IMG/VR virus record: IMGVR_UViG_3300032314_000362
Location: 1-54,933 of that record
From: a virus
Taxonomy: Duplodnaviria; Caudoviricetes
Length of the DNA stretch: 54,933 nucleotides
Direction: 5' to 3' (one strand)
Shown here: positions 10,961-54,933 of the stretch, piece by piece
Position numbering within the stretch: the first letter of the stretch is position 1
How the letters are laid out: each line of letters begins with the position of its first letter
Translations under genes and position numbers: made by a program
Notes under the pieces: model-generated
The model's database searches: none
What the model was told of the DNA's origin: nothing
Seen by the model: the letters and a program-made list of their open reading frames with translations, nothing else

Positions 10961-10990
10961 AACCCCTGCCAACGCGCAGGGGTTTTTGTT
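10961..10990 (+). terminator. Rho-independent terminator
   Basis: AACCCCTGC-caacgc-GCAGGGGTT followed by TTTGTT. Confidence 0.8.
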
Positions 10991-29268: not shown

Positions 29269-30105
29269 TTATAAACCGCAATATCCCGATGGGCAAGTTT
29301 CCTCAAACAACTCCCAGAGTGGCAATTGATTGCCTACGGCCTGTTCAAGCGGACGCATAACGCCGCCCGTCATTGGGTAGAGATAGCGTCTATCTCTACC
29401 CAATGATACCCGCTTGACGTTTATTTCGTTTTCCAACGCCACACAAGCGGCAAACTCCTCTGGCTTTTCGCGCTTCTTGTCTACCCATGCCCCGCGCGTG
29501 TGGAAAGGACACCACCAGCACAAGCTCGACGGCGGCACTGGCAATCCTGAGCCAGTGATGATATTCATGCAATCAAGGCGCGTCAGTTTTAGATCAATCA
29601 GCGGCCACGCAAAACGCTTGCTATAGCGCTTGGTGACTGGTAGATATTCAGTAGACTTTGTTGCCGTGCGTCGAAATTCGTCAATGGAAAAGCCTAACTG
29701 GATCGTGGCGTGGGTGATTCCCTGCGCCTTAATCCACTTGTCCACAACCTTGACCTTAAAATCCTGCGTGCAGGTGCGGTTGCCGGGCGCGCCGTTTTTC
29801 ATAAACGCGGGGATAGGTATACTTCGCTTTGTGCGTCGAATGTGTTCAAGAATTGTTTCGGGCTGCCCGTTATATTCGTGCTGAACCTCCACGATCTCAA
29901 TGCCGTGCGCCGCCGCAAATGGGCGCGCATACGATTCAAGGTACTCCAAAGTTTCAGGTTTTTCACTGTCCTTACCCACGTTGGCAAATACAAAAGCGTC
30001 TGGACGCGGTACTTTGCCCTGTGCAATAAGCACCATAAGCGCCGTAGATTGCACCCCCGCGCCGTAACTGAATATCGTTTGTTCTCTTTTAGTCAACGTC
30101 GTCAT
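29269..30105 (-). CDS. PAPS reductase-family (PP-loop) protein
   Basis: SYGAGVQST PP-loop, FANVG..E, RTCTQDFKV, WPL and SLCWWCPF. Confidence 0.85.
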   Translation of the reverse strand: MTTLTKREQTIFSYGAGVQSTALMVLIAQGKVPRPDAFVFANVGKDSEKPETLEYLESYARPFAAAHGIEIVEVQHEYNGQPETILEHIRRTKRSIPIPAFMKNGAPGNRTCTQDFKVKVVDKWIKAQGITHATIQLGFSIDEFRRTATKSTEYLPVTKRYSKRFAWPLIDLKLTRLDCMNIITGSGLPVPPSSLCWWCPFHTRGAWVDKKREKPEEFAACVALENEINVKRVSLGRDRRYLYPMTGGVMRPLEQAVGNQLPLWELFEETCPSGYCGL

Positions 30106-31773: not shown

Positions 31774-31803
31774 AAAAATACCCCGCCCAAGAGAGAGCGG
31801 GGT
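31774..31803 (-). terminator. Rho-independent terminator insulating parMR
   Basis: On the - strand: ACCCCGCUC-loop-GGGCGGGGU-AUUUUU. Confidence 0.7.
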
Positions 31804-33874: not shown

Positions 33875-35125
33875 TTATAAACGGATAGGACTAACAATGT
33901 TCCATTCGGGTTCATCGGAACCCGTCAAGCGGCGGGTGATGTGCAGGCGAATCGGGTTCTTCAACTGGTATTCGCCGTAGAGTTCGTCCCCAGTGCGCCA
34001 ACCGCCAACGAGATCGGCGCTACCGATACCCAAAGCGCCAACCGTCCCGGCGCTTGCAACGATTTCATGCTCGTCAACTAAGATGACAACTTGCGGGTTT
34101 TTCAGTTCATCTAGCACCAACTTGAAATTTTCAACCTGCACCGAGAGATTGTCTGCTGGGTTCGTGCCAATTTTGCGTTCGTCGGGGATTTTATGCCCAA
34201 CGACGTAAAAGGTATCCGTTGCGGTGTCAAGCAAAACGCGAACAGGAAGGCAGTAGGGAAGGTCGTACCAAGCATCTGTCTTTGTTCCCACATGCGCCGC
34301 AAGAACGCCGAATGCCTTGAGGTTACTGGCAGTGGCGAATTGTTCTGCGTTCTCAGGATTTTGGATTCGGTAAACCCCCTGCCCAGCGTAGATTGCCGCT
34401 ATTTCCCAAAAGATCGGTTCGGCTGCGGGCAACGGCGTTTCATTCGGCAACGGGGGAGGGGGCAATAGGTTTTGCGGGGAATCAGGCATCATCGCCGTCG
34501 GAATGTAGTCCCCTTCGTCAGTTACAATGCCATCTGCCTGTAGTTCCTCTGGCGTATACATCCCCTGAATAATATCGGGGAACACTAGCCTAAAGGCCGC
34601 GCTGATGCAACGCCAACGTAGCATCACGGCAAACTGTTTCTTCCAGTTGGCTTTATCATCCAAGCCCATAGCGACGGCGTGGGCGCGGGTGAAGGTTTCG
34701 ACGTGTACAGGCTGCCCCTTGCGCTTGACGGTCACAACGCATTGCTGTTCGTTGCCCTCAATCTTGATAGATTCAAGCAAACCCGATGCGTAGACTAGGG
34801 CTAACATGCCCTGCGGGGCGATTGTCGGTTTCCCGTCAATCAGGTGAACCAAATCCATTGAAGCCATTGGCTCAAACCCGACCTCGTAGCCTTTGACCAT
34901 AATGCTCCAAACATCTTGCACGGTTAGCGGTTTGCGGTTCTGACCAAACCCCCGCATACTCAATTGGCTCTCTGCATACATGCGGGCAGCCACCATCAGC
35001 CGTTCGGCTTCTAAGGCCGTCATCGTCATGAACGAACGGTCACGCTTGACCTGCGCTAGATCAATCCTGCTGGCTTTTACTGCATTATCTGGGTTATACG
35101 GGGTTAGTGCGTTACTATCAGTCAT
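33875..35125 (-). CDS. RecT/Red-beta-like single-strand annealing protein with a C-terminal extension
   Basis: GYEVGFEPM..VHLIDGKP, NWKKQFAVMLRWRC and FPDIIQGMYTPEE. Confidence 0.75.
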   Translation of the reverse strand: MTDSNALTPYNPDNAVKASRIDLAQVKRDRSFMTMTALEAERLMVAARMYAESQLSMRGFGQNRKPLTVQDVWSIMVKGYEVGFEPMASMDLVHLIDGKPTIAPQGMLALVYASGLLESIKIEGNEQQCVVTVKRKGQPVHVETFTRAHAVAMGLDDKANWKKQFAVMLRWRCISAAFRLVFPDIIQGMYTPEELQADGIVTDEGDYIPTAMMPDSPQNLLPPPPLPNETPLPAAEPIFWEIAAIYAGQGVYRIQNPENAEQFATASNLKAFGVLAAHVGTKTDAWYDLPYCLPVRVLLDTATDTFYVVGHKIPDERKIGTNPADNLSVQVENFKLVLDELKNPQVVILVDEHEIVASAGTVGALGIGSADLVGGWRTGDELYGEYQLKNPIRLHITRRLTGSDEPEWNIVSPIRL

Positions 35126-35190: not shown

Positions 35191-35215
35191 ACCGTGACGC
35201 AAAACGTGTTTCGCA

Positions 35216-35368
35216 TCACTCAATCTCGGCGGAATCGGTTTCGTCAAACCCCTTTTCCTTGACGGGTTCTAACTTCGGACGGGTGTAGTTCTGGTAGGGC
35301 AAAAGCGTGGGGGCAGGCTTCGCCCACATCCAGCTATAGCGGCTGATAAATTCCTCTACCGTTATCAT
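35216..35368 (-). CDS. Small hypothetical protein (50 aa)
   Basis: MITVEEFISRYSWMWAK...; AAGGA SD and ATGA overlap with the upstream ORF. Confidence 0.5.
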   Translation of the reverse strand: MITVEEFISRYSWMWAKPAPTLLPYQNYTRPKLEPVKEKGFDETDSAEIE

Positions 35369-38003: not shown

Positions 38004-38036
38004 ATAGAAGCTATGGACATTGCCCCACATGAACGC

Positions 38037-38060
38037 AAAAACCGCCTTTCGGCGGTCTTT
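38037..38060 (-). terminator. Rho-independent terminator after dnaB
   Basis: GACCGCC-GAAA-GGCGGUUUUU on the - strand. Confidence 0.8.
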
Positions 38061-38121
38061 GTTGGAATCAATCCACACACAACAAATGCACTTCTTCAAC
38101 GCATTCAGGATACCCGATCCA

Positions 38122-40205: not shown

Positions 40206-41162
40206 TCAGTCTCCCTTCGTACCTAATTCAGGCAATTCAAAACTATCGCTTGTGTAGCGGGATTGCCCTTCGACAACAGGCGCAGGTGCTACGGCAAGAT
40301 ACTTCCCGAACCACTCAGCAAACTTCTTGCCGCGTGGAAAATTGAACCCCGGCACTTCCTTTGCGTACCACTCAAAGTACGCTTCCACCGCTTCCGTCGT
40401 GACCTTATCAGCGTGAGCGGCTTTAAGCGACTGAACCTCTTTGGCGGACGGGGCAAAGCCCAATCCCATATTATTAGCAACCGCACCGACGAGTTGTTGG
40501 TGATTTGTTAGCGGCTTTTTGGGCTTTTGGGAGGGGGGGGCTTCCGCAATGGGGGGGTGGGGTAGTACCTGCTGCTCACTTAGTTGTACGCTCAGTCTTA
40601 TTCCTTCAACAACAGACGTTGTTTGTTCTTGGGCGGTTTTCGTTTCGGGGGAGTGGTCGGAGTTCTCAGATGCTTGCATCTGCCTTTCTTTCAAGTCGCC
40701 TGAGTTTCTTTCTAAGGTATCTTTCTCTGATCGGGGTAAAGATTCTTGCCCTCCGGGGTAAAAATTCTTTACCCCTGAATCCGTTTGGGGGTAAAAATTC
40801 TTTACCCCTGATTCAATGGTTGGATAGATAATCCAGTAGGTTCTACGAATGCGGGCGGCATCCCCTTCATCTTGAGAAGATAGCAACCCTAGATCGGTAA
40901 GTGACCTAAGTGCCTTCTGTATCGTGGGGCGTGATAACCCCGTTCCAGCGTCTAACGGCGTCCCATCGCTCCGCTTGCGACCATGCTCAAAATCTTCAAG
41001 GGTTAGGTGGCGGTTGAGTTCGTGATACCCGATAGTTTGCCGAAACATATAGGTCATGACAACGTGTTCCGATGGGGAGAGCGTTGGCATAATCCAGTCT
41101 AGGTAATCGTTGGGGACTTGGCTGTAGTTGAACTTCGGTGCTACATAGGGTTTGCTTGACAT
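40206..41162 (-). CDS. Phage replication initiator (lambda O-like)
   Basis: YSQVPN, RQTIGY and TGLSRPTIQKALRSL winged HTH; internal iterons; upstream of the loader and helicase. Confidence 0.8.
   Translation of the reverse strand: MSSKPYVAPKFNYSQVPNDYLDWIMPTLSPSEHVVMTYMFRQTIGYHELNRHLTLEDFEHGRKRSDGTPLDAGTGLSRPTIQKALRSLTDLGLLSSQDEGDAARIRRTYWIIYPTIESGVKNFYPQTDSGVKNFYPGGQESLPRSEKDTLERNSGDLKERQMQASENSDHSPETKTAQEQTTSVVEGIRLSVQLSEQQVLPHPPIAEAPPSQKPKKPLTNHQQLVGAVANNMGLGFAPSAKEVQSLKAAHADKVTTEAVEAYFEWYAKEVPGFNFPRGKKFAEWFGKYLAVAPAPVVEGQSRYTSDSFELPELGTKGD
40733..40811. repeat. Iterons / candidate replication origin inside the initiator gene
   Basis: GGGGTAAAAATTCTTTACCCCTGA at 40755 and 40788, plus a degenerate copy at 40733. 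Each full copy is itself palindromic. Confidence 0.75.
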
Positions 41163-43619: not shown

Positions 43620-43903
43620 GCCTCAAAAGCGGCAATCAACTCCGCTGATGGGAAACCGTCAGTGCGAAAGGTGCGACCCGACGCCATGCCGATTTCGTCC
43701 TCTACGATGTACGCCACATGCTGAAGGCTAATCAAAACACTCTTGGCGCGATAAGACGGATTGGCAACGCCGATTTCATCGGGAACCAGAACGCGCACGC
43801 GAAACACGTTTTGCTTGCGCGGCGCAGGAAGGTCAAAGACCTGTCCAGCGTTCTGAATCTCGGCGGGGTCAACGCCGCCCGTGTTGCTCTGGTAGTAGTT
43901 CAT
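43613..43903 (-). CDS. Hypothetical protein
   Basis: AAGGAG SD; promoter TTGACA-17-TATCAT at 43956-43928. Confidence 0.65.
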   Translation of the reverse strand: MNYYQSNTGGVDPAEIQNAGQVFDLPAPRKQNVFRVRVLVPDEIGVANPSYRAKSVLISLQHVAYIVEDEIGMASGRTFRTDGFPSAELIAAFEAW

Positions 43904-43982
43904 GGTCTGTTACACTCCTTTTTGACGATGATACACCCTACAAGAGATATTGTCAAACACAATACTTGCGGGGTGTACGGGG

Positions 43983-44390
43983 CTAGATAACTTCGTTGAT
44001 CCACTCTGGCAGGTCAAAACCTGCGGGGTTCAGGTTGTGTAGCGCTAGACGGTTGCGTAGCATCTGCGCGGTGTACTTGGCGCGGGCAAACTCTTTGCCC
44101 CGGCCAAACTCAATACGCTCTGCGACAAACGGCGGGGCAGGTTGCGAGTAGGTGACTTTAGACGAAACCTGTACCTGCTCATTTTCAATGAGGATAAGAA
44201 CACCGTGCCATTGCGTGCGCGGCGGGGGCGGGGGGGTTGCCAACCGCCGCCATTCAACCCGCACTAGGCTACTGCGGTCTGGTAAGAATCCCGCGTGCTG
44301 AAGGGACGCACGCATGAGCTTCACCGAGCGCGGCTCGTAGCCCCCGAACTCACTACCTGCCCACAGCGAAATCTGGATAGGCGCGCTCAT
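43983..44390 (-). CDS. Hypothetical protein
   Basis: AGGAG SD; promoter TTGACA-17-TATCCT at 44489-44461. Confidence 0.6.
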   Translation of the reverse strand: MSAPIQISLWAGSEFGGYEPRSVKLMRASLQHAGFLPDRSSLVRVEWRRLATPPPPPRTQWHGVLILIENEQVQVSSKVTYSQPAPPFVAERIEFGRGKEFARAKYTAQMLRNRLALHNLNPAGFDLPEWINEVI

Positions 44391-44567
44391 GGTTTAGGCT
44401 CCTATAGTGGTTTTGGTTTACAAAAAGGGCAGTCCGCAATGCTGTTTCTTCCACACGCTCAGGATACCCCCGTATAGCGCTATTGTCAACGCTGGCAAAC
44501 CGATGTCAGCCTGCGCGGTACTGTGATATACTATTCGCAATGAATTTCTTGCGAAGGATTAGCGCCG

Positions 44568-45320
44568 ATGCAGCAAAGCAGAGCAATGAGGGTGCTAAGG
44601 CACTACAGCGCTGGCGAGCCGACACCGTTCATCATCACCAACACCGCAGGTACGTTTGACCCCACAGTTACCACGTCAGGCGGCACAGTGACGTGGCGCA
44701 ACGGGTTAACAGGGGAAACGTTCACGACAAATTCGCTGTCAGTAGCGGGGACGGGTGTTAGCACGCCTTGGTATATTGATCCTATCAGCATCGTGCGAAC
44801 ACTGGATTGTCAAAACGACGATGTGACGTATGTAAATTTCAAAGGATTACCATTAGTCACATCTATCAATTGTAATTTTAATAGTATAACGGGTACGCCA
44901 GATTTTAGTGGCAACCCTCTGGTGACATCAATTGGTATGTTCGCGAATAATTTTTCTGGGGAGCTTGATCTTCGTGCCAACCCCGCGCTGGTGCAGGCTG
45001 CTTTTGGCGCTACGTCAATATCTGGAGTGGCAAACCTGAGTGGGAATCCGCTCTTAACTCGTATTGAGCTTTACAACACAAATGTAGCATCTGTTGTATT
45101 CGGTGCTAACACTGTACTCACGTATTTATTGTTACACCGATACGGTCAAAATATCCTTATGACGCAAAGCGCAGTGGACAATGTTATTATTGCTATTGAG
45201 GCGTTCGGAACGAGCAACGGCACGCTAAATGTAGGCGGTAGCAATGCCGATCCTAGCGCGGGTGTCATTGCTACACAGGTTGCCGCGCTGGTTAGTCGAG
45301 GTTGGACTGTCACGTACTAG
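44568..45320 (+). CDS. Leucine-rich-repeat-like protein, possibly virion- or surface-associated
   Basis: Repeats of about 22-23 aa (FKGLPLVTSINCNFN, FSGNPLVTSIGMFAN, LRANPALVQAAFGAT, LSGNPLLTRIELYNT); extended -10 TGnTATACT at about 44524-44532. Confidence 0.7.
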   Translation: MQQSRAMRVLRHYSAGEPTPFIITNTAGTFDPTVTTSGGTVTWRNGLTGETFTTNSLSVAGTGVSTPWYIDPISIVRTLDCQNDDVTYVNFKGLPLVTSINCNFNSITGTPDFSGNPLVTSIGMFANNFSGELDLRANPALVQAAFGATSISGVANLSGNPLLTRIELYNTNVASVVFGANTVLTYLLLHRYGQNILMTQSAVDNVIIAIEAFGTSNGTLNVGGSNADPSAGVIATQVAALVSRGWTVTY

Positions 45321-45329
45321 GGGGATGAT

Positions 45330-45800
45330 GTGATACAAATACTGCTAAATGAGGAAACGAACACGCGCTATATTCAGCCTGTGACGAACAATCTGGCGGT
45401 ATCCGCTTATGCGTTTGCTGCCAGTGATGGATTTATGGACGTTACCGCTATTGCGCTCAATACCACGCTTGATAACGTGTTTAACGTGCTAGGCGCGGCT
45501 ACAGGCTACGCTTTTGTAGATGAACGAAACGCCCAAAACCTAACCGATGTGCCAAAGCCCACGCGGGAGATTACTCGCATATTCATTAAGCCGACATCGG
45601 CAGGAACGCTTGACGTGTACAATCTGGATATGTCCGCAGACATTGACCGCGTAGCGCTACCGCTGACTACGACCATGCTATCACAGAGCGATTTAGAGCT
45701 TGCCGCGCAAATCTTTGCGGGGGGTGATGTGAATGCAGCATTGGCGGGGCTGGCCGCGCTGTGGGGTTTGACGCTGAACGATACACGAACTGGAATCTAG
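45330..45800 (+). CDS. Hypothetical protein co-transcribed with the LRR gene
   Basis: AGGGGG SD, followed by a terminator. Confidence 0.6.
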   Translation: MIQILLNEETNTRYIQPVTNNLAVSAYAFAASDGFMDVTAIALNTTLDNVFNVLGAATGYAFVDERNAQNLTDVPKPTREITRIFIKPTSAGTLDVYNLDMSADIDRVALPLTTTMLSQSDLELAAQIFAGGDVNAALAGLAALWGLTLNDTRTGI

Positions 45801-45831
45801 CTTGCACAACGGAGATAGAAGTGGATACAGT

Positions 45832-45861
45832 GCGCCCGCTCCAACTGGATCGGGCGCTTTT
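45832..45861 (+). terminator. Rho-independent terminator
   Basis: GCGCCCG...CGGGCGC-TTTT. Confidence 0.7.
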
Positions 45862-45892
45862 GATTTGGCTAGGTAATGGGGATTACAGGGGA

Positions 45893-46243
45893 CTAATCTT
45901 CTTCAATGAGCGCAACGGGCTTAAAGCCTGCCCAATCACGAATTGGCAATTCGGCTTCATCAGCGGGCGCTGGCATTGATTCAACGGTTGGCAATACCAC
46001 CTTCATTGCACTTACAATCGCCTGCCAAGCGCGCTCTAGGGCATCAGTAACTTTGCTTTTAGCGGCGTAAACATCCCATAGCGCGGGGTCGCGCAGGTCT
46101 TGCGCTGTGGGGTCATCTGGGTCGCCGGGGTCGCTGGCATTCCAGCGATCCAATGCACTCTTTTCGTCGGCACGGGCGCGGGCGACGGCTTCGTAGGCAG
46201 CTTGCTTTGCAATTTCCAACTCTTTTACGATTTCTGCGTTCAT
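45893..46243 (-). CDS. Hypothetical protein
   Basis: Helical ORF with a GGGAAG SD. Confidence 0.6.
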   Translation of the reverse strand: MNAEIVKELEIAKQAAYEAVARARADEKSALDRWNASDPGDPDDPTAQDLRDPALWDVYAAKSKVTDALERAWQAIVSAMKVVLPTVESMPAPADEAELPIRDWAGFKPVALIEED

Positions 46244-46377
46244 GATATTTCTTCCCGCCCATCTGGGCTACGGAGCGCGCTGGCTCCAGTGTATGATAGT
46301 TTCGTTGTACCGCTTAGGGGTTTCCCCCTATTTATCCCCGCGCTGTCACGCGGGGATGGCTTTTTAACGCCCCTACC

Positions 46378-46728
46378 CTATTGATTCGCTCGCTTCATAG
46401 GCTCACCGCGCAAGTAGGCGCAAACATCAGCTTCCGTACACTTGTGTACGGCGCAGTCAACGATAATGCGGAAGCGCTCATAGGGCGAAAGTGCGCGTAG
46501 AGCCATTTCTTTATCGCCCGATAGGCGCCCTGTTGCCAATGCCCATTTGAAGCCGTATTCGGCTTGGCGCAGAGCGTGCTGCATATTGCCCTCTACATCA
46601 TCACGGCGCAGGTATGAGGCAAAACGCTCAGTAGCCCGAAAGTCGTTCGTGTTATGGAAAATCCCGATCTCGCGCAGTTGCGCGTTTAGGGCTTTTTCTT
46701 GTTGGGCGATTTGGGCGAGAGCGTTCAT
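46378..46728 (-). CDS. Hypothetical protein
   Basis: Downstream of the operator-containing promoter at 46789-46817. Confidence 0.6.
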   Translation of the reverse strand: MNALAQIAQQEKALNAQLREIGIFHNTNDFRATERFASYLRRDDVEGNMQHALRQAEYGFKWALATGRLSGDKEMALRALSPYERFRIIVDCAVHKCTEADVCAYLRGEPMKRANQ

Positions 46729-46788
46729 TTAGGGCAACTTTCTGCGCTTGCGCGCTATGGGGTAGGCCAAGCGCCTACTGATAAAAGA

Positions 46789-46817
46789 AGTATATAAGGT
46801 ATAGCTATACCTGTCAA
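46789..46817 (-). promoter_or_regulatory. Promoter with a palindromic operator in the spacer
   Basis: TTGACA-17-TATACT; palindrome AGGTATAGCTATACCT at 46797-46812. Confidence 0.75.
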
Positions 46818-46831
46818 TAGGGGAATGCCCC

Positions 46832-47071
46832 CTAATCTTTAGGGGCTTCGAGCGCGGCCTGTTGGCGCTCACGATAATCCACACGAACGCCGGTTGTGCT
46901 GTGTGTGCGCGGCGGTGGCGTCGGCATGGCATCGCGGGCGGCTTTTTCTGCGATAGCTGACGCGATGTAGTCGGTCAGGGCTGTGTCGCCTGCGGCGCTC
47001 TCCAGCCACGCACGATAGTCCGGCGTGACTGGGAAGCGGATGCTGTGAAGGGGTTGCTTAGGGTTGGGCAT
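46832..47071 (-). CDS. Small ribbon-helix-helix-like DNA-binding protein
   Basis: HSIRFPVTPDYRAWLESAAGDTALTDYIASAIAEKA (beta-helix-helix); start ATG 47071. Confidence 0.6.
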   Translation of the reverse strand: MPNPKQPLHSIRFPVTPDYRAWLESAAGDTALTDYIASAIAEKAARDAMPTPPPRTHSTTGVRVDYRERQQAALEAPKD

Positions 47072-47076
47072 GGTAT

Positions 47077-47556
47077 CTATTCGTAAACCAGAACTTCCCA
47101 ACCGTCGCCCTTGCCCCATACGGCCATTTGCTCAATGATCGCTTCACGGGGATATAACCCCGCCGCTGAATTTTCACGATCAAGCCCTAGCCCGTCTGTG
47201 CCGAACTCTAAGCGATAAAGCTCACCCTCTTTTTCCACGCGGGCAAAGCGCCCGCCTTTGCTCGTGCTGATGACGGTTTCACCGCTTTCGACTTCCAGCA
47301 AAGCGGCGCCTACGTCTAGGGTAGATTCGCCGCCCAGCGCCGTAATCGCGCTTTCCCACGCGCTGCGGATAGCAGGGTCTTCGATTTCGCTTACGAAGCC
47401 TTCGCCCATCATGTCTAAGGCGTCTGCGGACTTGGTTGCATCGCCTGCCCAGAACTCATCCGTGCCGCTGCCATCGTCATTTTGGGCGCGCACATCGCCT
47501 TCCCAGACGATAAACCCGCCGCTACCCATGTGACATATTGTGATAGTTGTGTTCAT
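47077..47556 (-). CDS. Acidic hypothetical protein
   Basis: GGAG SD; very rich in Asp and Glu. Confidence 0.65.
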   Translation of the reverse strand: MNTTITICHMGSGGFIVWEGDVRAQNDDGSGTDEFWAGDATKSADALDMMGEGFVSEIEDPAIRSAWESAITALGGESTLDVGAALLEVESGETVISTSKGGRFARVEKEGELYRLEFGTDGLGLDRENSAAGLYPREAIIEQMAVWGKGDGWEVLVYE

Positions 47557-47603
47557 GGTTGCTTCTCCGTTTCTGTGGGGTCCTTGTTGCCTCCACTTCC
47601 AAT

Positions 47604-47632
47604 AGTATAGCAGGTATGGTTATACCTGTCAA
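47604..47632 (-). promoter_or_regulatory. Promoter with the same palindromic operator
   Basis: TTGACA-17-TATACT; CAGGTATGGTTATACCTG at 47611-47628. Confidence 0.75.
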
Positions 47633-47652
47633 GCGATAGCATGGGGCAAATT

Positions 47653-48033
47653 TCAAGATTCCCATGATGTCGGGATCGCTCCAGACGTGATCGCATGGGT
47701 CGTCGACCATGTTGACGGGTTGGGTGATATGGATGATAGTTGCCAGACGTTCAGCAGGCGTCCGCTGCGCGTCGTTTCAACCTCTACGCAGGTAAACCCG
47801 CGTTTCTCATACCACGCATTCGAGGCCAAATCCTGCGGACACTTGGCGCGAATGATCGTCGCCTTTGCCTTTAGCATCTCAAGCATCCGACTGCCTGCGC
47901 CGGGTTGGGTGCTGATGATCTCGTAAATGACTAGCACGCCGTCGCGCTTGCGGATACGGAAGCGACACATGCCGCCTTCGACTAGGATCAATTCCCCGCG
48001 CTGGCTGGACTCATACAGCGATTCAAAGACCAT
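47653..48033 (-). CDS. GNAT-family acetyltransferase
   Basis: IYEII...QPGAGSRML (motif A) and SNAWYEKRGF (motif B). Confidence 0.7.
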   Translation of the reverse strand: MVFESLYESSQRGELILVEGGMCRFRIRKRDGVLVIYEIISTQPGAGSRMLEMLKAKATIIRAKCPQDLASNAWYEKRGFTCVEVETTRSGRLLNVWQLSSISPNPSTWSTTHAITSGAIPTSWES

Positions 48034-48646
48034 TGATATACTCCATAATGTTCTGCGCGCTGATTCGCGCATTATTTTGCGTTGTGTCTTGTACTGCAAT
48101 CCACCGTCCGCACTGGAAGATTTGCCCATGCGCGGCCTTCATCGCCAGCTTATTGCCGTCTGCGCTGATGACTGTTCCGCCTAAGCGTGTGATTCGCTGG
48201 ATTTCACGCGCCTGTGCTACTGGATCACCGCCAAGCAGGTGATAGTTGCCGGGACGAATTTCGTCATCTACTGGCAGGTATCCGCTGTACTGCGTGGGGA
48301 TACTGATGCAGATCACAATGTCTGGATCATCGGGAATCAACGCCAGCGCGCCAGCGTACTTGGGCGCTACACCGATCAATTGCACGCCCTCAGCGCGAAG
48401 ATCAGCGATGTGCAATTTGATCGTTTCAATATCCCGATATATTTCAAGGTCGGGCGTCAAAGCAAAGGTAGGCTTAAGCTGGCGAACCTTGCGAATATAC
48501 TGCGCCCATCGCGGGGATAGCCCAGCGTCGAGCATGTACACGGGGGCATAGGCTTTGTAGTCGTAGCGCACGCCGTAGGCCATGCCTGCTTGTTCTGCGA
48601 TGGATGGGGCGGACATATCACCGCCCCTGCAGTAGATGAATTTCAT
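48023..48646 (-). CDS. Hypothetical protein, possibly DUF6610 / TGT-DpdA-like TIM barrel
   Basis: ALTPD, YHLLGG and ISADGN resemble tRNA-guanine-transglycosylase-like barrel motifs. The family call is from memory. Confidence 0.45.
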   Translation of the reverse strand: MKFIYCRGGDMSAPSIAEQAGMAYGVRYDYKAYAPVYMLDAGLSPRWAQYIRKVRQLKPTFALTPDLEIYRDIETIKLHIADLRAEGVQLIGVAPKYAGALALIPDDPDIVICISIPTQYSGYLPVDDEIRPGNYHLLGGDPVAQAREIQRITRLGGTVISADGNKLAMKAAHGQIFQCGRWIAVQDTTQNNARISAQNIMEYINGL

Positions 48647-48733
48647 TGAATTAATCCCCCGCCACTGTTACGTATCGAATTAAGTTGTTTTTCATGAAAT
48701 CCTCTCTTATGCTTGGCTGAAGATTGTGCGTAG

Positions 48734-48773
48734 GCACATTGCTCGGCACGCGCTAACGTGCCGAGTGGTCTAC
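48734..48773 (-). repeat. Intergenic structured element, copy A
   Basis: GUAGAC-CA-CUCGGCACG-UUAGCG-CGUGCCGAG-CA-AUGUGC. Confidence 0.8.
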
Positions 48774-50486
48774 CTACAAAGTCGTGATGGGAGTTGCCGA
48801 AAGCGCCTTCTGCACGTCACGCACGGCCATGTAGTGTGCAATCAGCGTTACACAATCGGCCTTGCTAAGTTGTTCTGGCAACGCCTCAACGGTGACTTCA
48901 GCGCCCAGCTTCTTGAGCATCCAGAGTTGCCGTTCGCTTGCTTCTTCTTGAAGCATCTTTTGCCATGTGGGTGATGTTGTAGTCATCTTGGAAGTGCGCG
49001 TCAACTGCGCTTCAATGTCGGCGCGGCGGTGAACGCCTAACGGCCTTGCCACCGGCGCTTTGTCAGAATCAGACTCTTTGGCGCAACGGTAAAGCGTGTA
49101 TTCCCCGCTATCCCCGATGGGGACTGCCAGATAGGTGACGCCGAACCCGTCAAGGTACGATAGCGCCCCGTCTGCCCCAACGTAGTACGGCCATGAGTTC
49201 TCACTCGCAACCGTCTGGATGCTTTCGGGAAGCAAACTCAAGTGTGCAAGTTGCATTTGCCGAACCGACGGACGGTTCTCGCGCCCGCAGTGCGGGCAAA
49301 CCGCCGTCCCGTGCATAAATTCGTTGTCGCAACCGCGACATGGAACCATGATCCCAAACAGGTCACTAGCCTTCGCTAACTTGTGGTCATTCACCTTCAT
49401 TTCGATAATGAGGGCGTACTCTTTGCCCTCAGCAAGCCGCAAACCGCGCCCTACCATTTGCTCATAGGCGGGTTGCGAACGGGTTGGGCGTGCGAGAATC
49501 ACGCAGCGCGTATCTGGCACGTCAAACCCTTCGGTAAACACGGCCACATTGATTAGCACGTCAATTTCACCCTTGCGGTAGGCGTCTACAATCGTTTTGC
49601 GTTCGCCTGCATCGGTTGTGCCGTCCACATGCCCAGCGCGCACGCCGTCGGCCTGTAGCGCTTGCGCGAGAGCGATGCTACTGGCAACCGTTGGCATAAA
49701 GACAATCGTCTTTCCGACAGCTTTGGCGTGCTTGTGGTAGGCTTGCTGAGTCTTTTCTACCCAGTTACTTGCGTTTAACTTCTCGCTTAGCCCTTTTTGT
49801 GAGAAGTCACCTTGACTGTTCGTGCGAACTTCGTTTGTGTCTACACCAGTCTGGTGTAGCAGGCGCACGGGCTTACATAGCCAACCCTTCTGGATTAAAT
49901 CAGCCGTCGGTATGTTGTAGTGAATCACCGAACTGTTGGGACGGTTCACCGCTTGCCGAAACACGGTATCCAAGCCCTTCTCATCGTGGCGCTTGGGCGT
50001 GGCGGTTATGCCTAAGCGTAAGACTTTAACCCCCGTTGGGGCGTTCTTGTCTAGGCCGTCTAGCATCGCGCCGTAGGTGTTGTCACCGACGGCATGATGT
50101 GCTTCATCAATGACCACATTTGTGATGTAACCAGAAGCCAGTAGCTTTGCCACATTCTTAGCCGTAAGGCTTTGAATCATGGCTACAGTGATGGGTCGCT
50201 TTGCTTCAACTGTGCCGCCGCCAAGCATCCCAATGTCTGCCGCTGGAATGCTACCATGAGCAATTAACCGCTCAATGATTTGCGTTACAAGTTCATGGCG
50301 ATGCACGACAATGAGCGTGCGTTCATCGGGTGATTGTGTGCGAACTTGGCGCATCCACTCGGCTAGGATAGTGGTTTTTCCCGCGCCGACGCCCGCTATC
50401 AGCGTTCCGTTGACGCGCCGCTGATGGGCAAGCATTAGTTTGGATACTGCTTCATTTTGGTAATCGCGTAGTTCAACTGTGGGCAT
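48774..50486 (-). CDS. SF2 DEAH helicase (RadD/YejH-like) with a Zn ribbon
   Basis: LRDYQ, GVGAGKT, IDEAHH, TATP, FTEGFD, QMVGRGLR and CxxC..CPHCG. Confidence 0.92.
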   Translation of the reverse strand: MPTVELRDYQNEAVSKLMLAHQRRVNGTLIAGVGAGKTTILAEWMRQVRTQSPDERTLIVVHRHELVTQIIERLIAHGSIPAADIGMLGGGTVEAKRPITVAMIQSLTAKNVAKLLASGYITNVVIDEAHHAVGDNTYGAMLDGLDKNAPTGVKVLRLGITATPKRHDEKGLDTVFRQAVNRPNSSVIHYNIPTADLIQKGWLCKPVRLLHQTGVDTNEVRTNSQGDFSQKGLSEKLNASNWVEKTQQAYHKHAKAVGKTIVFMPTVASSIALAQALQADGVRAGHVDGTTDAGERKTIVDAYRKGEIDVLINVAVFTEGFDVPDTRCVILARPTRSQPAYEQMVGRGLRLAEGKEYALIIEMKVNDHKLAKASDLFGIMVPCRGCDNEFMHGTAVCPHCGRENRPSVRQMQLAHLSLLPESIQTVASENSWPYYVGADGALSYLDGFGVTYLAVPIGDSGEYTLYRCAKESDSDKAPVARPLGVHRRADIEAQLTRTSKMTTTSPTWQKMLQEEASERQLWMLKKLGAEVTVEALPEQLSKADCVTLIAHYMAVRDVQKALSATPITTL

Positions 50487-50519
50487 GGGAAAAGCCTTTG
50501 CTATAGGGTCGGTTTATTG

Positions 50520-50548
50520 ATTATACCCGCAAAATACGCGATTGTCAA
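50520..50548 (-). promoter_or_regulatory. Consensus sigma70 promoter for the helicase
   Basis: TTGACA-17 nt-TATAAT. Confidence 0.85.
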
Positions 50549-50592
50549 ACCGCTTATGTGTGGGGCGAAACGTGTTTTGCGTGCTGCAAAGC

Positions 50593-50630
50593 GCACAATG
50601 ACGCCCTAGCGAACTAGGGCGCGGGTCTAC
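50593..50630 (-). repeat. Intergenic structured element, copy B
   Basis: GUAGAC-CCG-CGCCCUAG-UUCG-CUAGGGCG-UCA-UUGUGC. Confidence 0.75.
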
Positions 50631-50654
50631 GCTTTAATCGGCTACTCGTTACGC

Positions 50655-51401
50655 CTAGCGTGTGCGGCGTTCGTAATTAGGGCGGAGTTTGCTCCCATCC
50701 TCAAGCCGTGACCAGTGGGTAACGATCCCCGTTGCGCGGTCAAGGAAAAGATACAGTCCCCCGATGTGGTACACGGTGATTTCAGACCGCGTGACCCACG
50801 TAGGAAGTTCGGTGGCGCATTGATCTGGCAGGTCTTTAATTTCAACCTGTGCAACGGATTCCAGCGCGTTCAACCGCTTGCCCGCGCCCTCATGTTTCAC
50901 GTCGGGCATGTCTTGGAACGCCAGTGGACTGGCGACAGCGTGGCCTAACAGGAACCGCGAAAGCGAAAGCGTGGGCGATAGCCGCTGTGCCACATGCAAT
51001 AGCGGGGTCAACAGTTCCCTTGCAATAAGGAAGCCTGCGCTTGATACGTCAACGTGGGTTGTCTCCGACAGTGGACGGGAAAGCCAAACGATGTTATGGC
51101 CCCCGATATGCGGGTTTTCATCTGGTGAAGCGAGGTGGATGATGTATTGAACTAGAAGCCATTCGGCTTCAATGACCGCTTCTGCGGGCATAAGCACGTT
51201 TGCGCTCACACGGCGGTCACGGTTATACAGTTCTAGCGCGGCGTCCATCTTGGCTTCTACGCTACGGATAGCAACCGTAGCGGCAAGCCCAACATACGGC
51301 GCATAGCGAGGTAATTCAGCCACGCGGGCTAGGCGTTCGCGGTGATCTGGGTGAATCACTTCAATCAAAAGTTGGTGCTTTGCAATGCTTTGAATGTTCA
51401 T
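50655..51401 (-). CDS. Hypothetical early protein
   Basis: AAAGGGA SD before ATG 51401. Confidence 0.65.
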   Translation of the reverse strand: MNIQSIAKHQLLIEVIHPDHRERLARVAELPRYAPYVGLAATVAIRSVEAKMDAALELYNRDRRVSANVLMPAEAVIEAEWLLVQYIIHLASPDENPHIGGHNIVWLSRPLSETTHVDVSSAGFLIARELLTPLLHVAQRLSPTLSLSRFLLGHAVASPLAFQDMPDVKHEGAGKRLNALESVAQVEIKDLPDQCATELPTWVTRSEITVYHIGGLYLFLDRATGIVTHWSRLEDGSKLRPNYERRTR

Positions 51402-51443
51402 CGTTTTTTCCCTTTGTGTGCTTGTAGTCAACGTTGTGCGTCC

Positions 51444-51490
51444 GCACATTGCCGGGCTAGTGTGTTTTCCACACTAACCCAGTGGTCTAC
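51444..51490 (-). repeat. Intergenic structured element, copy C
   Basis: GUAGAC-CA-CUGGGUUAGUGUG-GAAAA-CACACUAGCCCGG-CA-AUGUGC. Confidence 0.8.
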
Positions 51491-52026
51491 GGACTTTCAG
51501 GGGCGGGTTGTGAGCGGCGGCGGTTAAAGTGATCCTTTTGGCTTGGTAACGGCAAGACAACGTAGTTACGCTGCGCCCACATGCCAGCATCAAACAGGGG
51601 ATTTTCACCGATAATCGGCAAATTGCTTTGACCGCTGTAGCGTTTCAACTCGCTACGCCACGCGCTAACCTGCTTGCGATAGTCGGTTAGGCTTGGCAGC
51701 ACGTACAGCAAGCGCCATTCCTTCACCTCATACGTCGTTGCGCCCCGTATCCCCCAGTACACGGCAAAAATCTGGTTCTTCGGCCACACAACCGCAATAT
51801 CTTCGGCTGTAAGGCTCTGGTCAATCCAAGCGCTTGACCGAGCGGTACTCAAAATGCTAGGGTTGTGAGACTGAAACTTGCTGTAGAACGTCGTTTGAAT
51901 CACGGGGGCGTTGCCGTCGGGGGTTTGTTCTTGGATTACTAGGTTAAACCCCACGTTGCCGTTGAGGTTCAACGATACCCCCCCAACTGCAAGCACGTCA
52001 AACTTCAGTAAACTTTGCTTTGGCAT
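51487..52026 (-). CDS. Hypothetical early protein
   Basis: TAAGGA SD before ATG 52026. Confidence 0.65.
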   Translation of the reverse strand: MPKQSLLKFDVLAVGGVSLNLNGNVGFNLVIQEQTPDGNAPVIQTTFYSKFQSHNPSILSTARSSAWIDQSLTAEDIAVVWPKNQIFAVYWGIRGATTYEVKEWRLLYVLPSLTDYRKQVSAWRSELKRYSGQSNLPIIGENPLFDAGMWAQRNYVVLPLPSQKDHFNRRRSQPAPESP

Positions 52027-52052
52027 GACTGTTGTCCTTATGGTAATTGTAG

Positions 52053-52095
52053 GCACATTACAGGGCATGAGGTGAACTCATGCCCCGGCATCTAC
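52053..52095 (-). repeat. Intergenic structured element, copy D
   Basis: GUAGAU-GC-CGGGGCAUGAG-UUCAC-CUCAUGCCCUG-UA-AUGUGC. Confidence 0.8.
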
Positions 52096-52104
52096 CCACT
52101 AAAC

Positions 52105-53340
52105 TTAAGCTGCGCTACTCATTGGCATGATAACCACGCTGGCAGGCGCGCCACTAACCGTAAACTGTAGCCGTACCATAGAATCTTTCACATCCACACG
52201 AATGAAGGGAATCATATTGCTTGACCCGTACTTCGTTGATTTAACTTGGTCGGCATGAGAGATTGCATCAAGAAAGTAGGTCACGTTGATGGCAAATTCA
52301 ACGCTTTCCATTAAAGAGTTGTAATCGTTGGTGCTACGGGATAAAACCTCAATGCTTGTATCGCCGCGTTCAGCGCTACTCGCAATTAAGCGCATTTTGC
52401 CATTTTCAGTTGGCGATTGTGCCGTAGTGTAAGAAAACCGCGTGATATTGGCGTTGTCTTTGGCGAATGTCCGCAGTAGCTTACACACTTTTACCAAGCT
52501 ATGCGGGTCTACCTCAAAACTATGATCTGGATTTTCAAAAGCATCTCGGATCACCTCATACTTTACAAAACTCACATCTGGCAATAGGTCGGCCACGCCG
52601 CCGCCTTTGCCCACCCATTTTGCTTGCGCTTCAATCGCTTTCTTGCCGGGGATATACTCTTGCCCGCAGTCTACCTTTTCAGTCACGTCTGAAAAATCTA
52701 CACAATCTAGCAAGTGTAAGCGGTAGCCGTCTGCACTAGCCGCTTGCATGATAGCGGGGTTGTAGCCGATGTGTTGCATCGAAGGGCGTTCATTGCCGCC
52801 CGCTACTTCATCTAAGAACGCTAACCCTAGCTTGCGTTGACGTTCTACGTTGTAATGGTCACACCAACTTCCACCCTTTGGCGCTGCTGGAATCTTGCTC
52901 TTGCGAATTGCCGTCACTTTATAGGCCTTGACCAATTCGCCAACGTTTTGGCCTACCATGCTTGCTTGCCAAAATGTGGTTTTACCGCCACGTTCACCCT
53001 GCCATATTTGTAGCGCAAGGATGTTGCCGGGGCGGGTTGTCAAGCCAAAGTGCAATGGGGATTCTAATTCAGACAATGCCAACAAATCGTTTAGGCGTGG
53101 CCGGTCAAGTTTGAACGATGCAACGGCTATAGACTCGTCCGTTACGTCTGGCAGTTCGTCTGCCAGATACCCGTATAATTGACCGTTCTTGAGGGCGAAC
53201 GCTTGCTGGTCAATCCAAAGGATAGACAAGCCGTTAGCGCGTGGCATGAGTGTTACTAACACCATTGGGTTAGCACTCATTTTGACTTGCGCTATGAGAT
53301 TTTTGTTAAGTGTAGCGAGTGTAGCGGCGTCTAGTTGCAT
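52105..53340 (-). CDS. Divergent DNA polymerase III beta-clamp-like protein
   Basis: C-terminal half has AASADGYRL, FAINVTYFLDAI and VVIMPM; the N-terminus is not recognisable. AAGGA SD before ATG 53340. Confidence 0.65.
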   Translation of the reverse strand: MQLDAATLATLNKNLIAQVKMSANPMVLVTLMPRANGLSILWIDQQAFALKNGQLYGYLADELPDVTDESIAVASFKLDRPRLNDLLALSELESPLHFGLTTRPGNILALQIWQGERGGKTTFWQASMVGQNVGELVKAYKVTAIRKSKIPAAPKGGSWCDHYNVERQRKLGLAFLDEVAGGNERPSMQHIGYNPAIMQAASADGYRLHLLDCVDFSDVTEKVDCGQEYIPGKKAIEAQAKWVGKGGGVADLLPDVSFVKYEVIRDAFENPDHSFEVDPHSLVKVCKLLRTFAKDNANITRFSYTTAQSPTENGKMRLIASSAERGDTSIEVLSRSTNDYNSLMESVEFAINVTYFLDAISHADQVKSTKYGSSNMIPFIRVDVKDSMVRLQFTVSGAPASVVIMPMSSAA

Positions 53341-53378
53341 GAGAGTATCCTTTTTTAATCCTATTGTGGGTAAAGTCC

Positions 53379-53422
53379 GCACATTGCCCGCCATGAACGC
53401 AAGCTCATAACGGGTTATCTGT
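53379..53422 (-). repeat. Intergenic structured element, copy E
   Basis: ACAGAU-AA-CCCGUUAUGAGC-UUGC-GUUCAUGGCGGG-CA-AUGUGC. Confidence 0.75.
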
Positions 53423-53430
53423 TGACTAGG

Positions 53431-54093
53431 CTAGAATTTGGCGTGCTGGGGGAATTGTATATCCCCGTAGTGGATCTGTGAGGTGTCGAAGTTCGGCAAG
53501 AACATTACCTTAACTCCTTGCCCGCGTGGGTCGCCATTTGCTATGGCAGTCCAACCGACGGACGCCGCAACCACTTTTGCTTCATCGGCCACAATGCGCC
53601 GTTGTGCGGCAATGGCGTCAACGTCTACGCCGTCCATTGTCCATTGCCCGCTCCAGATGAGTTGATTGCCCTTGCGGACATACTCACGCCGTCCGCAAGT
53701 GTAGGTAAAATTCAGGTGTTCTGCTTTCAGGCTAAGATTAGCCAAGCGATAGAGCGCAAGCGCTTGCAACGTGTATCCATCGCTACCATAAAGGTGGTGG
53801 GTTTCAGGCCGTAGCGCTTGCCACACGCGCATAACGCGCATAAGCGTAGCTTGCCGGGGTGTCATGTTCAGCAATTTTACCCACACGGGCATAGGTTGCG
53901 CTTGCCCGTTGTCAAGCTGCCACGCTAAGAGCGTCTTTCCTGATTGGCCGACAAGCACAACCACCGTTGCCAGCAATGGGTAGCCATGTTGCCAGTTCTC
54001 GACGCTTGCCAGTGCGCCGGCGCGTGATTTATGCTGCTCGCTGAACTGCAAGACCATTGATTCAGGGTTGTTAAACAGGTTTAACGTATACAT
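53431..54093 (-). CDS. Hypothetical early protein
   Basis: AAAGGA SD; C-terminal NGDPRG motif. Confidence 0.65.
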   Translation of the reverse strand: MYTLNLFNNPESMVLQFSEQHKSRAGALASVENWQHGYPLLATVVVLVGQSGKTLLAWQLDNGQAQPMPVWVKLLNMTPRQATLMRVMRVWQALRPETHHLYGSDGYTLQALALYRLANLSLKAEHLNFTYTCGRREYVRKGNQLIWSGQWTMDGVDVDAIAAQRRIVADEAKVVAASVGWTAIANGDPRGQGVKVMFLPNFDTSQIHYGDIQFPQHAKF

Positions 54094-54122
54094 GGTTTAT
54101 ATCCTTTGTGTGTGATAAAAAG

Positions 54123-54167
54123 GTACATTACAGCGCTAGACTTATGCGCCTAGCGCTGAATATCTAC
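54123..54167 (-). repeat. Intergenic structured element, copy F
   Basis: GUAGAU-AUU-CAGCGCUAGGC-GCAUAA-GUCUAGCGCUG-UA-AUGUAC. Confidence 0.8.
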
Positions 54168-54169
54168 CC

Positions 54170-54859
54170 TTACTTGGAGAGTGTTTTGTGAATCACAACT
54201 AGGGCAACGGGGGAATTAGGGATTAGATACCACACATCCGAACTGGGTAATTTTATCGCCCGCCGTTGACCGTCTAAATAAAACCCGTGAACGGTAAACA
54301 GTTCACCCCCATTTTTGTCTAAAAACCGCGTTCCGATAACGCCCTCTTTCCACGCTTTCCAAGCGATCAGGGGGGTATTGTCGGTGATGGACAAGAACTG
54401 GACATCGGTCAACACGTCAAGCGCGCTATTGCCGAAAACCTTACGCTTGGCAATTTCTGGCAGAATGAGGGCGGCATCATCAAAAGCATAGGTTATGTGC
54501 ATCTTGACGCCCTTATAGTCGCTTGCCGTCGGTGATCTAAACTTAACAGGGGAAACATACTCACAATCCCCGCCGTGACTCATGTCATGGTAGCCGATAT
54601 GCCAATGTGTAGTATTGGCTTGCATGGTCGCCGCTACAGCGGTAAACAGCGCGGTTTCCGTCGGGTAATCTGCGATATAGAAACATTGGTTGACGGCTAA
54701 AATCCGTTCCCCATGATAGGGGTTTTTCGCTTGACGTTCCACAGTGGCGCGCAGTGTCGGGCGGTCTGTGCGTAGACCGCCCCAGACACCCTTTGGTAGG
54801 GGCGTCCCGTCGTGACGTTTGCCGCGCAGCACGTTTTTAAAAGCCTTAGATAGTTTCAT
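54170..54859 (-). CDS. Hypothetical early protein
   Basis: GAGGA SD. Confidence 0.65.
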   Translation of the reverse strand: MKLSKAFKNVLRGKRHDGTPLPKGVWGGLRTDRPTLRATVERQAKNPYHGERILAVNQCFYIADYPTETALFTAVAATMQANTTHWHIGYHDMSHGGDCEYVSPVKFRSPTASDYKGVKMHITYAFDDAALILPEIAKRKVFGNSALDVLTDVQFLSITDNTPLIAWKAWKEGVIGTRFLDKNGGELFTVHGFYLDGQRRAIKLPSSDVWYLIPNSPVALVVIHKTLSK

Positions 54860-54886
54860 GTTGTATCCTCATGTTGGTTAATGTAT

Positions 54887-54926
54887 GCACATGCCCCAGC
54901 ACGTTAACCCGTGCTGGGTAATCTAC
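54887..54926 (-). repeat. Intergenic structured element, copy G
   Basis: GUAGAU-UA-CCCAGCACG-GGUUAA-CGUGCUGGG-GC-AUGUGC. Confidence 0.8.
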
Positions 54927-54933
54927 ACACACT

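Follow-up and report, generated by a model that had tools for sequence, protein, structure and literature searches.

The linear virus record IMGVR_UViG_3300032314_000362 of IMG/VR (54,933 bp, CheckV completeness 76%; analysed whole and called the window below) carries seven copies of a hairpin element, A to G, all on the minus strand and one at each gene junction from 48.7 to 54.9 kb (Table 1). These elements are a well-supported structured RNA, with three helices, covariation and a strand bias. With regard to function, the explanation that we rank first, at a little short of an even chance, is that by analogy with known sites they could be intercistronic mRNA processing sites and 3'-end-protecting hairpins, which also form module boundaries. 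Processing with 3'-end protection is placed first because the anatomy of the elements, their intercistronic position upstream of the ribosome-binding site (RBS) and their sense-strand bias match sites of the RNase III type.

A structured RNA at seven gene junctions

A first-pass annotation of the window had recorded seven elements, one per junction, and their minus-strand positions are borne out, with none elsewhere in the window. The exact pattern GTAGAY-N18-45-ATGTGC has 5 matches in the window against 0.32 expected, a number reached in none of 100 shuffles; four of the five are elements and the fifth (45516, plus strand) is without a hairpin. With one flank mismatch allowed and an inner fold of -8 kcal/mol or lower required, the two strands of the window together yielded six of the copies, A being returned twice, and no other site; E is missed because its 5' flank, ACAGAU, deviates twice. 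A covariance model built from the seven copies, whose own match scores follow by construction, gives them 33.5 to 58 bits and their antisense 10 to 24 bits, and finds no further site in the window above 10.1 bits (E = 2.1). Since neither the pattern scans nor the covariance model find another site in the window, the class is confined to 48.7-54.9 kb. A repeat search with a maximum distance of 12 listed element B alone.

All seven copies run parallel to the genes; each follows a stop codon and, as had been claimed, precedes the next RBS, with the next start codon 26-42 nt away (106 nt for B). Six copies had been said to begin within about 10 nt of the upstream stop codon; this holds for five of the six that can be scored, B beginning 24 nt past it. 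In C the UAG of GUAGAC is itself the stop codon of the 193-aa gene, in F the outer helix overlaps the UAA stop of the upstream gene, and the contig end falls within the outer helix of G.

Three simpler roles for the flanks were considered and rejected. GUAGAY serves as a stop codon in C alone. AUGUGC as a start codon is in frame with the downstream gene in two of the seven copies, and one of these stops after 4 codons. Against a sigma-70 promoter, the flanks are 26-35 nt apart, AUGUGC lies at a varying distance of 1-10 nt from a -10-like CACAAT or TACAAT, and no promoter was scored there.

The extent first given to the elements, 38-47 nt, was too short, as a covarying outer helix continues for at least 4 bp further on each side. 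Each of the seven copies has 19-21 predicted pairs and 23-25 helical steps, about two helical turns, in 50-55 nt. From the base up, the plan is a variable outer helix of 4-7 bp, in which the 4-7 bases beyond GUAGAY and AUGUGC on either side pair and covary; conserved G-C, U-G and A-U pairs; an invariant G-G mismatch; and one or two further pairs. Above this, in the predicted folds of all seven copies, comes an internal loop (2x2, 3x2 or 3x3 nt), followed by an upper stem that varies in sequence and has 9-13 bp, closed by a loop of 4-6 nt. The GUAGAY and AUGUGC flanks described in the first pass stand in most copies, the exceptions being ACAGAU in E, AUUGUGC in B and AUGUAC in F. For E the change of U-G to C-G in the lower helix had been seen correctly, and the outermost G-C pair is lost as well.

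The inner stems differ in sequence yet pair, as had been noted and as folding bears out. The core folds have energies of -16.7 to -23.5 kcal/mol, with z of -3.1 to -5.9 over the seven copies. In a model-based alignment of 18 pairs, 85.7% of the 126 cells pair against 67.2% in shuffles, and in 10 of the 18 pairs both partners change. Covariation is significant, with a score of 0.537 against 0.211 that none of 500 shuffles reached; slid control alignments show 26-50% pairing. Of the 28 cells in the four outer pairs, 27 are standard, and GC/AU, UA/AU and CG/GC swaps occur among them. This alignment mis-registers the upper stems of B and F, and when the upper stem is instead paired by rank from its base all seven copies show the same plan, with 2-5 pair types at seven of nine ranks. 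The copies are partly alike in pairs (A with G, D with E, B with F), and as their stems have this likeness they look like diverged duplicates.

G-U pairs on the sense strand had been pointed out in C, D, E and F and are confirmed there (2, 1, 3 and 1 respectively); A and B have them too, where their stems end. When 7 nt of flank are included, fold energies are -27 to -35 kcal/mol for the sense strand and -18 to -28 for the antisense strand, the sense strand being the better in all seven copies (sums -213.6 against -150.4); for the core alone it is the better in six of the seven. The fold is thus one selected on the mRNA-sense strand, and the earlier suggestion of selection on a single-stranded, probably RNA, fold stands.

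Two further features lie beside the elements. In A and C (48719-48740 and 51429-51450, minus strand) the UGUGC of the 3' flank could pair with a GCACA 4 nt downstream to give a 5-bp mini-hairpin, the loop of which is the 3' half of the outer helix; G, E and B have weaker versions of this alternative. A CACAA-like string recurs in most copies between the element and the RBS.

Possible functions: RNA processing or protein binding

We suggest that the sense-strand hairpin would punctuate a polycistronic phage mRNA. It would be recognised by a double-strand-specific endoribonuclease, and a long transcript would be cut once per junction. The most likely enzyme is the host's RNase III, which would take its guidance from the mismatch and the internal loop in the manner of the early sites of T7. 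The upstream cistron would then retain a 3' hairpin shielding it from 3'-5' exonucleases, and the downstream cistron would begin just before its own RBS. We infer the transcription as one RNA, the cleavage, the enzyme and the stabilising effect, and also the early status of the block, the last from gene content and sigma-70 promoters.

The T7 early sites (R0.3, R0.5, R1, R1.1 and R1.3) are the obvious comparison. For folding, their positions were taken to be those of Dunn and Studier 1983, the T7 record being without such annotation. Like the elements, the T7 sites are single hairpins at intercistronic junctions of a gene block that runs in one direction, and they have no U-tract. As folded here they are also alike in that the lower stem varies, the region around the internal loop is conserved in sequence, the upper stem has 9-10 bp, the loop is small and the whole is about two turns long. 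However there is no sequence similarity, the conserved T7 strings ACUCAAGG and CCUUUAUGAU being absent from the elements, and T7 has a larger asymmetric loop where the elements have the G-G mismatch and a small symmetric or nearly symmetric loop. The two also differ in that this phage has no RNA polymerase gene among the 53 distinct ORFs scanned with Pfam and/or PHROGs; these 53, from a contig about 76% complete, likewise include no integrase, HUH transposase, RNase III or double-stranded-RNA-binding protein. As far as the predicted folds go, the elements and the T7 sites are alike in structure and are not homologous.

The usual substrate of RNase III is a helix of about two turns (about 20-22 bp or its coaxial equivalent), and internal loops restrict the enzyme to one strand, leaving a protective 3' hairpin (from the parts of PMC1540722 used here). 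The predicted folds of all seven copies have a helix of about two turns and an internal loop or mismatch of the kind that limits cleavage to one strand. It was on this anatomy that processing of the RNase III type proved the best fitting of the three options in the first-pass annotation, the others being a protein-binding site and an attC-like recombination site.

There are also points that count against processing. The invariant GUAGAY, YAAUGUGC and G-G are not explained by RNase III alone, as the enzyme has no positive sequence determinants known in those parts of PMC1540722, and they may point to a sequence-specific protein instead. The lack of any sequence similarity to the T7 sites belongs here too, as does the spacing between G-G mismatch and apical loop, which by hand count is 13 to 17 steps and so gives no fixed ruler. 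As the copies are paralogues in one genome, the cell counts overstate the number of independent covariation events. A search of Rfam gave no family at E up to 10, which agrees with the first-pass view that the motif is not a described one. No RNA runs are listed among the sequencing runs that contain the phage. Finally, polycistronic transcription is assumed, and there is one high-scoring promoter-like site inside the array, past B.

The invariant flanks are explained better by a rival that we consider unlikely as a whole, in which the element is the site of a sequence-specific RNA-binding protein of phage or host (an endoribonuclease, a regulator of translation or decay, or an antitermination factor) that reads the lower helix and the G-G mismatch in it; the upper stem, which varies, would serve only to keep the site in shape. 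Binding of a protein would account for conserved flanks that RNase III does not require (as far as the parts of PMC1540722 used here extend), and the flanks and G-G are indeed invariant or nearly so in the seven copies while both adjoining helices vary freely. That the element is known only from this phage lineage fits a private protein-RNA pair, and many of the nearby ORFs are without known function. However the 53 ORFs scanned, from a genome of which about 24% is missing, yielded no recognisable RNA-binding or nuclease domain; an antiterminator with as many as seven sites within 6 kb would be unusual; and translational repression is not obvious because the RBSs are outside the fold.

Gene exchange at the junctions and the remaining alternatives

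Natural variants were available from metagenomes. One source-like run contains the whole stretch, and three freshwater runs (X2, X3 and X4), all from a single other study, contain 12-17% of the sampled words. Variant contigs were aligned at 80% likeness or more, and the figures given here come from the junctions among the matches listed, in that one study. The contigs are about 90-94% identical, with shared genes differing by about 6-14%, and homology breaks mostly between genes.

It had been proposed to ask whether relatives swap the genes between elements as units, and the answer is positive in outline, with loss of the 220-aa gene, a 698-nt insert and replacements among the variant contigs. 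The 220-aa gene is absent in X2, X3 and X4, where 53428 is joined to 54120 with 11 nt between, leaving F and E in tandem. X2 has the 698 nt inserted between 50634 and 50647, just 5' of B (4 nt from it), and X3 and X4 have loose ends there too. Different upstream sequence is found 6 nt from D (52101), at the stop codon that precedes F (54170) and precisely at the GUAGAU of G (54926). At 52058 in X2 a G-type hairpin runs into the downstream sequence of D from within AUGUGC, and at 54882 in X4 a D-like downstream sequence begins 5 nt past G. Joints and loose ends among the matches listed are at 50634, 52058, 52101, 53428, 54120, 54125, 54170, 54882 and 54926. The exchange is one of whole genes, and in at least one case two elements are joined to each other as a chimera.

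It does not follow from the variant data that the elements bring this exchange about. Breakpoints were tallied by hand over the matches listed, excluding four spurious short matches of the source-like run (X1). Among these matches 14 of the 18 distinct breakpoints fall in the seven spacers; together these amount to 649 of 6334 nt, about 10% of the stretch. Nine of the 18 are within 6 nt of a hairpin, and hairpins with 6 nt added make up about two thirds of the spacer length; as 9 of 14 equals this share, there is no extra preference for hairpins once intergenic position is allowed for. The hairpins mark the places of gene exchange, loss and gain because they fill most of each spacer and share a conserved flank of 6-11 nt, and under the processing explanation the role as module boundary would be a consequence and not the primary function.

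In the source-like run short contigs over G (54864-54933) have a depth of 47-81x against 33.5x elsewhere, up to about 2.4-fold, and as this raised depth indicates, the assembly stops at G because a near-identical copy or co-occurring variants share the element.

That exchange is itself the selected function seems to us distinctly unlikely. The elements would in that case be DNA-level recombination sites of a gene-cassette array, used by a recombinase that acts on a folded single strand, as with attC or REP and its transposase RAYT, or by hairpin-provoked template switching or breakage. The dropping, insertion and replacement of genes beside elements in the variant contigs of the three freshwater runs speak for such sites, as does a gene for a RecT-like annealing protein at 33875-35125. 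However the breakpoints among the matches listed are not enriched at hairpins beyond being between genes. Moreover genes are present or absent as units in the variants, yet two variants keep two hairpins in tandem (F-11 nt-E and F-D), which is not expected from excision with one site per cassette.

In integron attC sites the R''/R' core consensus is RYYYAAC ... GTTRRRY. The elements have no such cores, their flanks being GTAGAY ... ATGTGC, and they have a mismatch and not bulged, extrahelical bases. They resemble attC in the priority of structure over sequence, in the paired conserved ends or outer helix, unpaired spacer and variable terminal stem-loop, and in the presence of one site after each promoterless gene of a one-directional array (from the parts of PMC2727003 used here). 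However attC uses the bottom strand, according to the same parts of PMC2727003, whereas here the sense (top) strand folds better in all seven copies. The genes between the elements are also larger (up to 1.7 kb) and include replication genes. The 53 ORFs scanned have no IntI tyrosine recombinase (the window ends at G), nor any other integrase or HUH transposase. Cores, strand, bases and the missing integrase thus disfavour the attC-like option of the first-pass annotation.

GTAG-tagged REP sequences are another possible parallel. They have GTAG 5' of a palindrome, with in the GTAG-1/2 families sometimes unpaired dinucleotides and a short motif on the far side, and they are placed after coding regions; their G-T pairs suggest an RNA function, and a role in mRNA stabilisation is described (all from the parts of PMC3733652 used here). 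GTAG is present in six of the seven elements (E has ACAG), with GUA predicted to pair with UGC. In contrast to the elements, of which there are 7 copies with all stems different and GUA paired, REPs are high-copy and keep their stem sequence, and no RAYT (Y1 HUH transposase) was found among the 53 ORFs of the contig. A shade less probable again than plain cassette sites is a phage-borne cassette system in which a structure-specific recombinase, or a hairpin-triggered template switch, would act on the folded sense strand to shuffle genes between co-circulating phages, the element doubling as an RNA signal. It would be an exchange platform of integron or PeSL (promoter-early stem-loop) kind, with a site type of its own that has not been described before.

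Promoter-early stem-loop (PeSL) cassettes of T4-like phages are similar in having a repeated intergenic stem-loop within a block of ORFans (ORFs without known relatives), at indel or replacement junctions between close relatives (from the parts of PMC2839356 and PMC4122927 used here). However a sigma-70 promoter joined to the stem-loop defines PeSL; here the promoter scan found none within any element and only B has one alongside, and the conserved parts are non-promoter flanks that pair with each other.

PeSL stem-loops terminate efficiently (in the part of PMC2839356 used here), and it might be asked if the elements attenuate or terminate transcription, in a factor-dependent or leaky way, so as to grade expression of the operon or with the need for a phage antiterminator. 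The stable GC-rich hairpins right after stop codons, the U5 run after F (CUUUUUAU) and the position of B just ahead of a strong promoter, in terminator-promoter fashion, are all compatible with this. We nonetheless doubt it strongly. The hairpin scan found canonical terminators with hairpin and U-tract at 31780-31803 and 38036-38061 (minus strand) and at 10961-10984 (plus strand), and as such terminators are used elsewhere in this genome and six of the seven elements have no U-tract, the elements are not the phage's terminators. The first-pass statement that there are no U-tracts thus holds except for F. Five terminators in a row with no promoter between would silence the distal genes, including the helicase-proximal clamp-like gene, and the conserved flanks and G-G mismatch would be left unexplained.

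A selfish or relic repeat of MITE or REP type, spread here with no function for the phage, is highly improbable: the pairwise similarity of A and G, D and E, and B and F suggests duplication, but pairing in three helices has been preserved through compensatory changes, each junction has its copy in the same strict position and orientation, all seven copies show the strand bias and there are no copies elsewhere in the genome.

Genomic setting, relatives and significance

The phage is an uncultured, siphovirus-like freshwater phage, unrelated to T7. Its plus strand from 2.4 to 27 kb encodes, by Pfam and PHROGs matches, one methylase, ThyX, the large terminase, the portal, a 1534-aa protein and a minor tail protein. 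The minus strand from 28 to 54.9 kb has PAPS-reductase-like, ParB-like and RecT-like genes, a second methylase and DnaB, DnaC-like and O-like replication genes, followed by many ORFans with the hairpin block. The coordinates of the array are collected in Table 1.

Table 1. Elements, genes and promoter of the hairpin array (coordinates of the window; model scores of the elements follow by construction from the covariance model)
Feature	Position	With outer helix	Strand	Context or description	Outer helix	Flanks (5'/3')	Upper stem and loop	Score (bits)
Element A	48734-48773	48729..48778	-	3' of SF2 helicase gene	GUAG/CUAC, 5 bp	GUAGAC/AUGUGC	10 bp; loop 4	51.4
Element B	50593-50630	50587..50636	-	3' of 248-aa ORFan	AAGC/GCUU, ~6 bp	GUAGAC/UUGUGC	9 bp; loop UUCG	36.4
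Element C	51444-51490	51440..51494	-	3' of 193-aa ORFan	GUCC/GGAC		13 bp; loop GAAAA	46.6
Element D	52053-52095	52049..52099	-	3' of clamp-like gene	GUGG/CUAC		11 bp; loop 5	58
Element E	53379-53423	53374..53427	-	3' of 220-aa ORFan	AGUC/GACU, shifted by one position	ACAGAU (5')	12 bp, 3 G-U pairs	49.1
Element F	54123-54167	54119..54171	-	3' of 229-aa ORFan	AAGG/CUUU	AUGUAC (3')	11 bp; then U5	33.5
Element G	54887-54926	54881..54932	-	contig end; upstream gene outside window	GUGU/AUAC and further, at least 7 bp		9 bp	52.2
SF2 (DEAD/ResIII) helicase gene	48774..50486		-	570 aa; between elements B and A				
Consensus sigma-70 promoter	50520..50548		-	TTGACA, 17 nt, TATAAT (12/12); between element B and helicase gene, 45 nt downstream of B				
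248-aa ORFan	50655-51401		-	without family or relative; 264 aa from upstream ATG in ORF list				
193-aa ORFan	51487-52026		-	without family or relative				
DnaN-like sliding-clamp gene	52105..53340		-	411 aa from RBS-preceded ATG; very distant similarity				
220-aa ORFan	53431-54093		-	without family or relative				
229-aa ORFan	54170-54859		-	without family or relative				

In the case of the clamp-like gene the ORF list had moved the start upstream to an ATG within element E. The 411-aa protein matches bacterial DnaN proteins that carry PF00712, PF02767 and PF02768 at E of 6e-5 to 3e-4, with 26-29% identity across 42-50% of its length, and has itself zero Pfam or PHROG matches. As the similarity to DnaN is only faint and there is no Pfam or PHROG match, it may be a highly diverged phage clamp. 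ESM Atlas gave nothing usable for two of the ORFans of the array.

Beyond the array, a DUF6610 gene lies at 48023-48646, and between it and element A there is a 15-codon mini-ORF (48648-48695, minus strand) with a strong RBS (AGAGAGGA). The gene for the O-like replication initiator (40206-41162) contains two identical 21-nt hairpin-forming repeats (GGGGTAAAGAATTTTTACCCC) at 40755-40775 and 40788-40808, 33 nt apart, which by analogy with lambdoid phages may be origin iterons. A perfect 17-bp inverted repeat with a 3-nt loop is found at 29370-29406, within the PAPS-reductase-like gene (29269-30105).

Near-consensus sigma-70 promoters are found on the minus strand at 47632, 46817 and 43956 (11/12 each) and at 44489 (10/12). 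As they run through the segment just downstream of the hairpin array (43928-50548, minus strand), this segment is organised by promoters and not by hairpins, and from these promoters together with the canonical terminators it follows that the host reads ordinary bacterial signals.

A palindromic core, AAACACGTTT, which looks like a repressor operator, is found at 735-744, 29109-29118, 35202-35211, 43802-43811 and 50568-50577. Besides these five exact copies there are others with a mismatch, 14 in all at up to one mismatch against 5.3 expected, and none of 100 shuffles reached 14. It lies within palindromes with 11-bp stems at 727-752 and 35194-35219, and at 35.2 kb and 50.57 kb it closely precedes TTGACA promoters, in the latter case between element B and the perfect sigma-70 promoter. 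One variant contig has a similar string upstream of element F.

Relatives are few. A nucleotide search of the region against the INPHARED phages gave zero matches, and in tblastn the helicase matches were all below 60% identity (the best listed about 30%) and the clamp-like protein had none. No relative came up when IMG/VR was scanned with the helicase and the clamp-like protein, or JGI metagenomes with the helicase and the 229-aa protein. A search of 5.8 billion proteins found only the window's own proteins at 100%, the next helicases being 35-40% identical, and the same proteins occur also on contigs of 57 kb and 64 kb.

The element itself was looked for at 80 loci of distant helicase relatives (1.26 Mb). 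There were 13 loose motif matches, none with the element architecture, a crude search of these loci for hairpin families with common flanks found the window alone, and the covariance model gave 0 matches at E up to 0.1. A 16-base search pattern that fits three of the seven copies found 70 loci in IMG/VR, all of them chance matches, and at least 120 loci in genome contigs; the 192 hits of both scans were folded, and none of the 15 most stable of the 192 had the architecture, which is a sample and not proof of absence. The covariance model gave one weak single match on the IMG/VR pattern loci (L130), without the long stem. One unrelated IMG/VR contig (L100, 850-2250) has three tandem paralogous genes with long Ala/Asp-rich repeats, and three chance matches in coding sequence. 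A keyword search of the open-access literature found no description of the motif, which does not imply its absence from print.

The element is thus a structured RNA without an Rfam family, and the uncultured freshwater phage that carries it has no closer helicase relatives than the distant ones given above. Its role is probably that of a signal for RNA processing and stability, which in addition marks the boundaries of modules. The locus is a compact natural case for asking if regulatory hairpins direct phage mosaicism or merely survive it. If the elements are processing sites, then segmentation of early mRNA in the style of T7 would have arisen independently in an unrelated siphovirus-like phage, and the conserved G-G mismatch would provide a handle on the placement of the cut.

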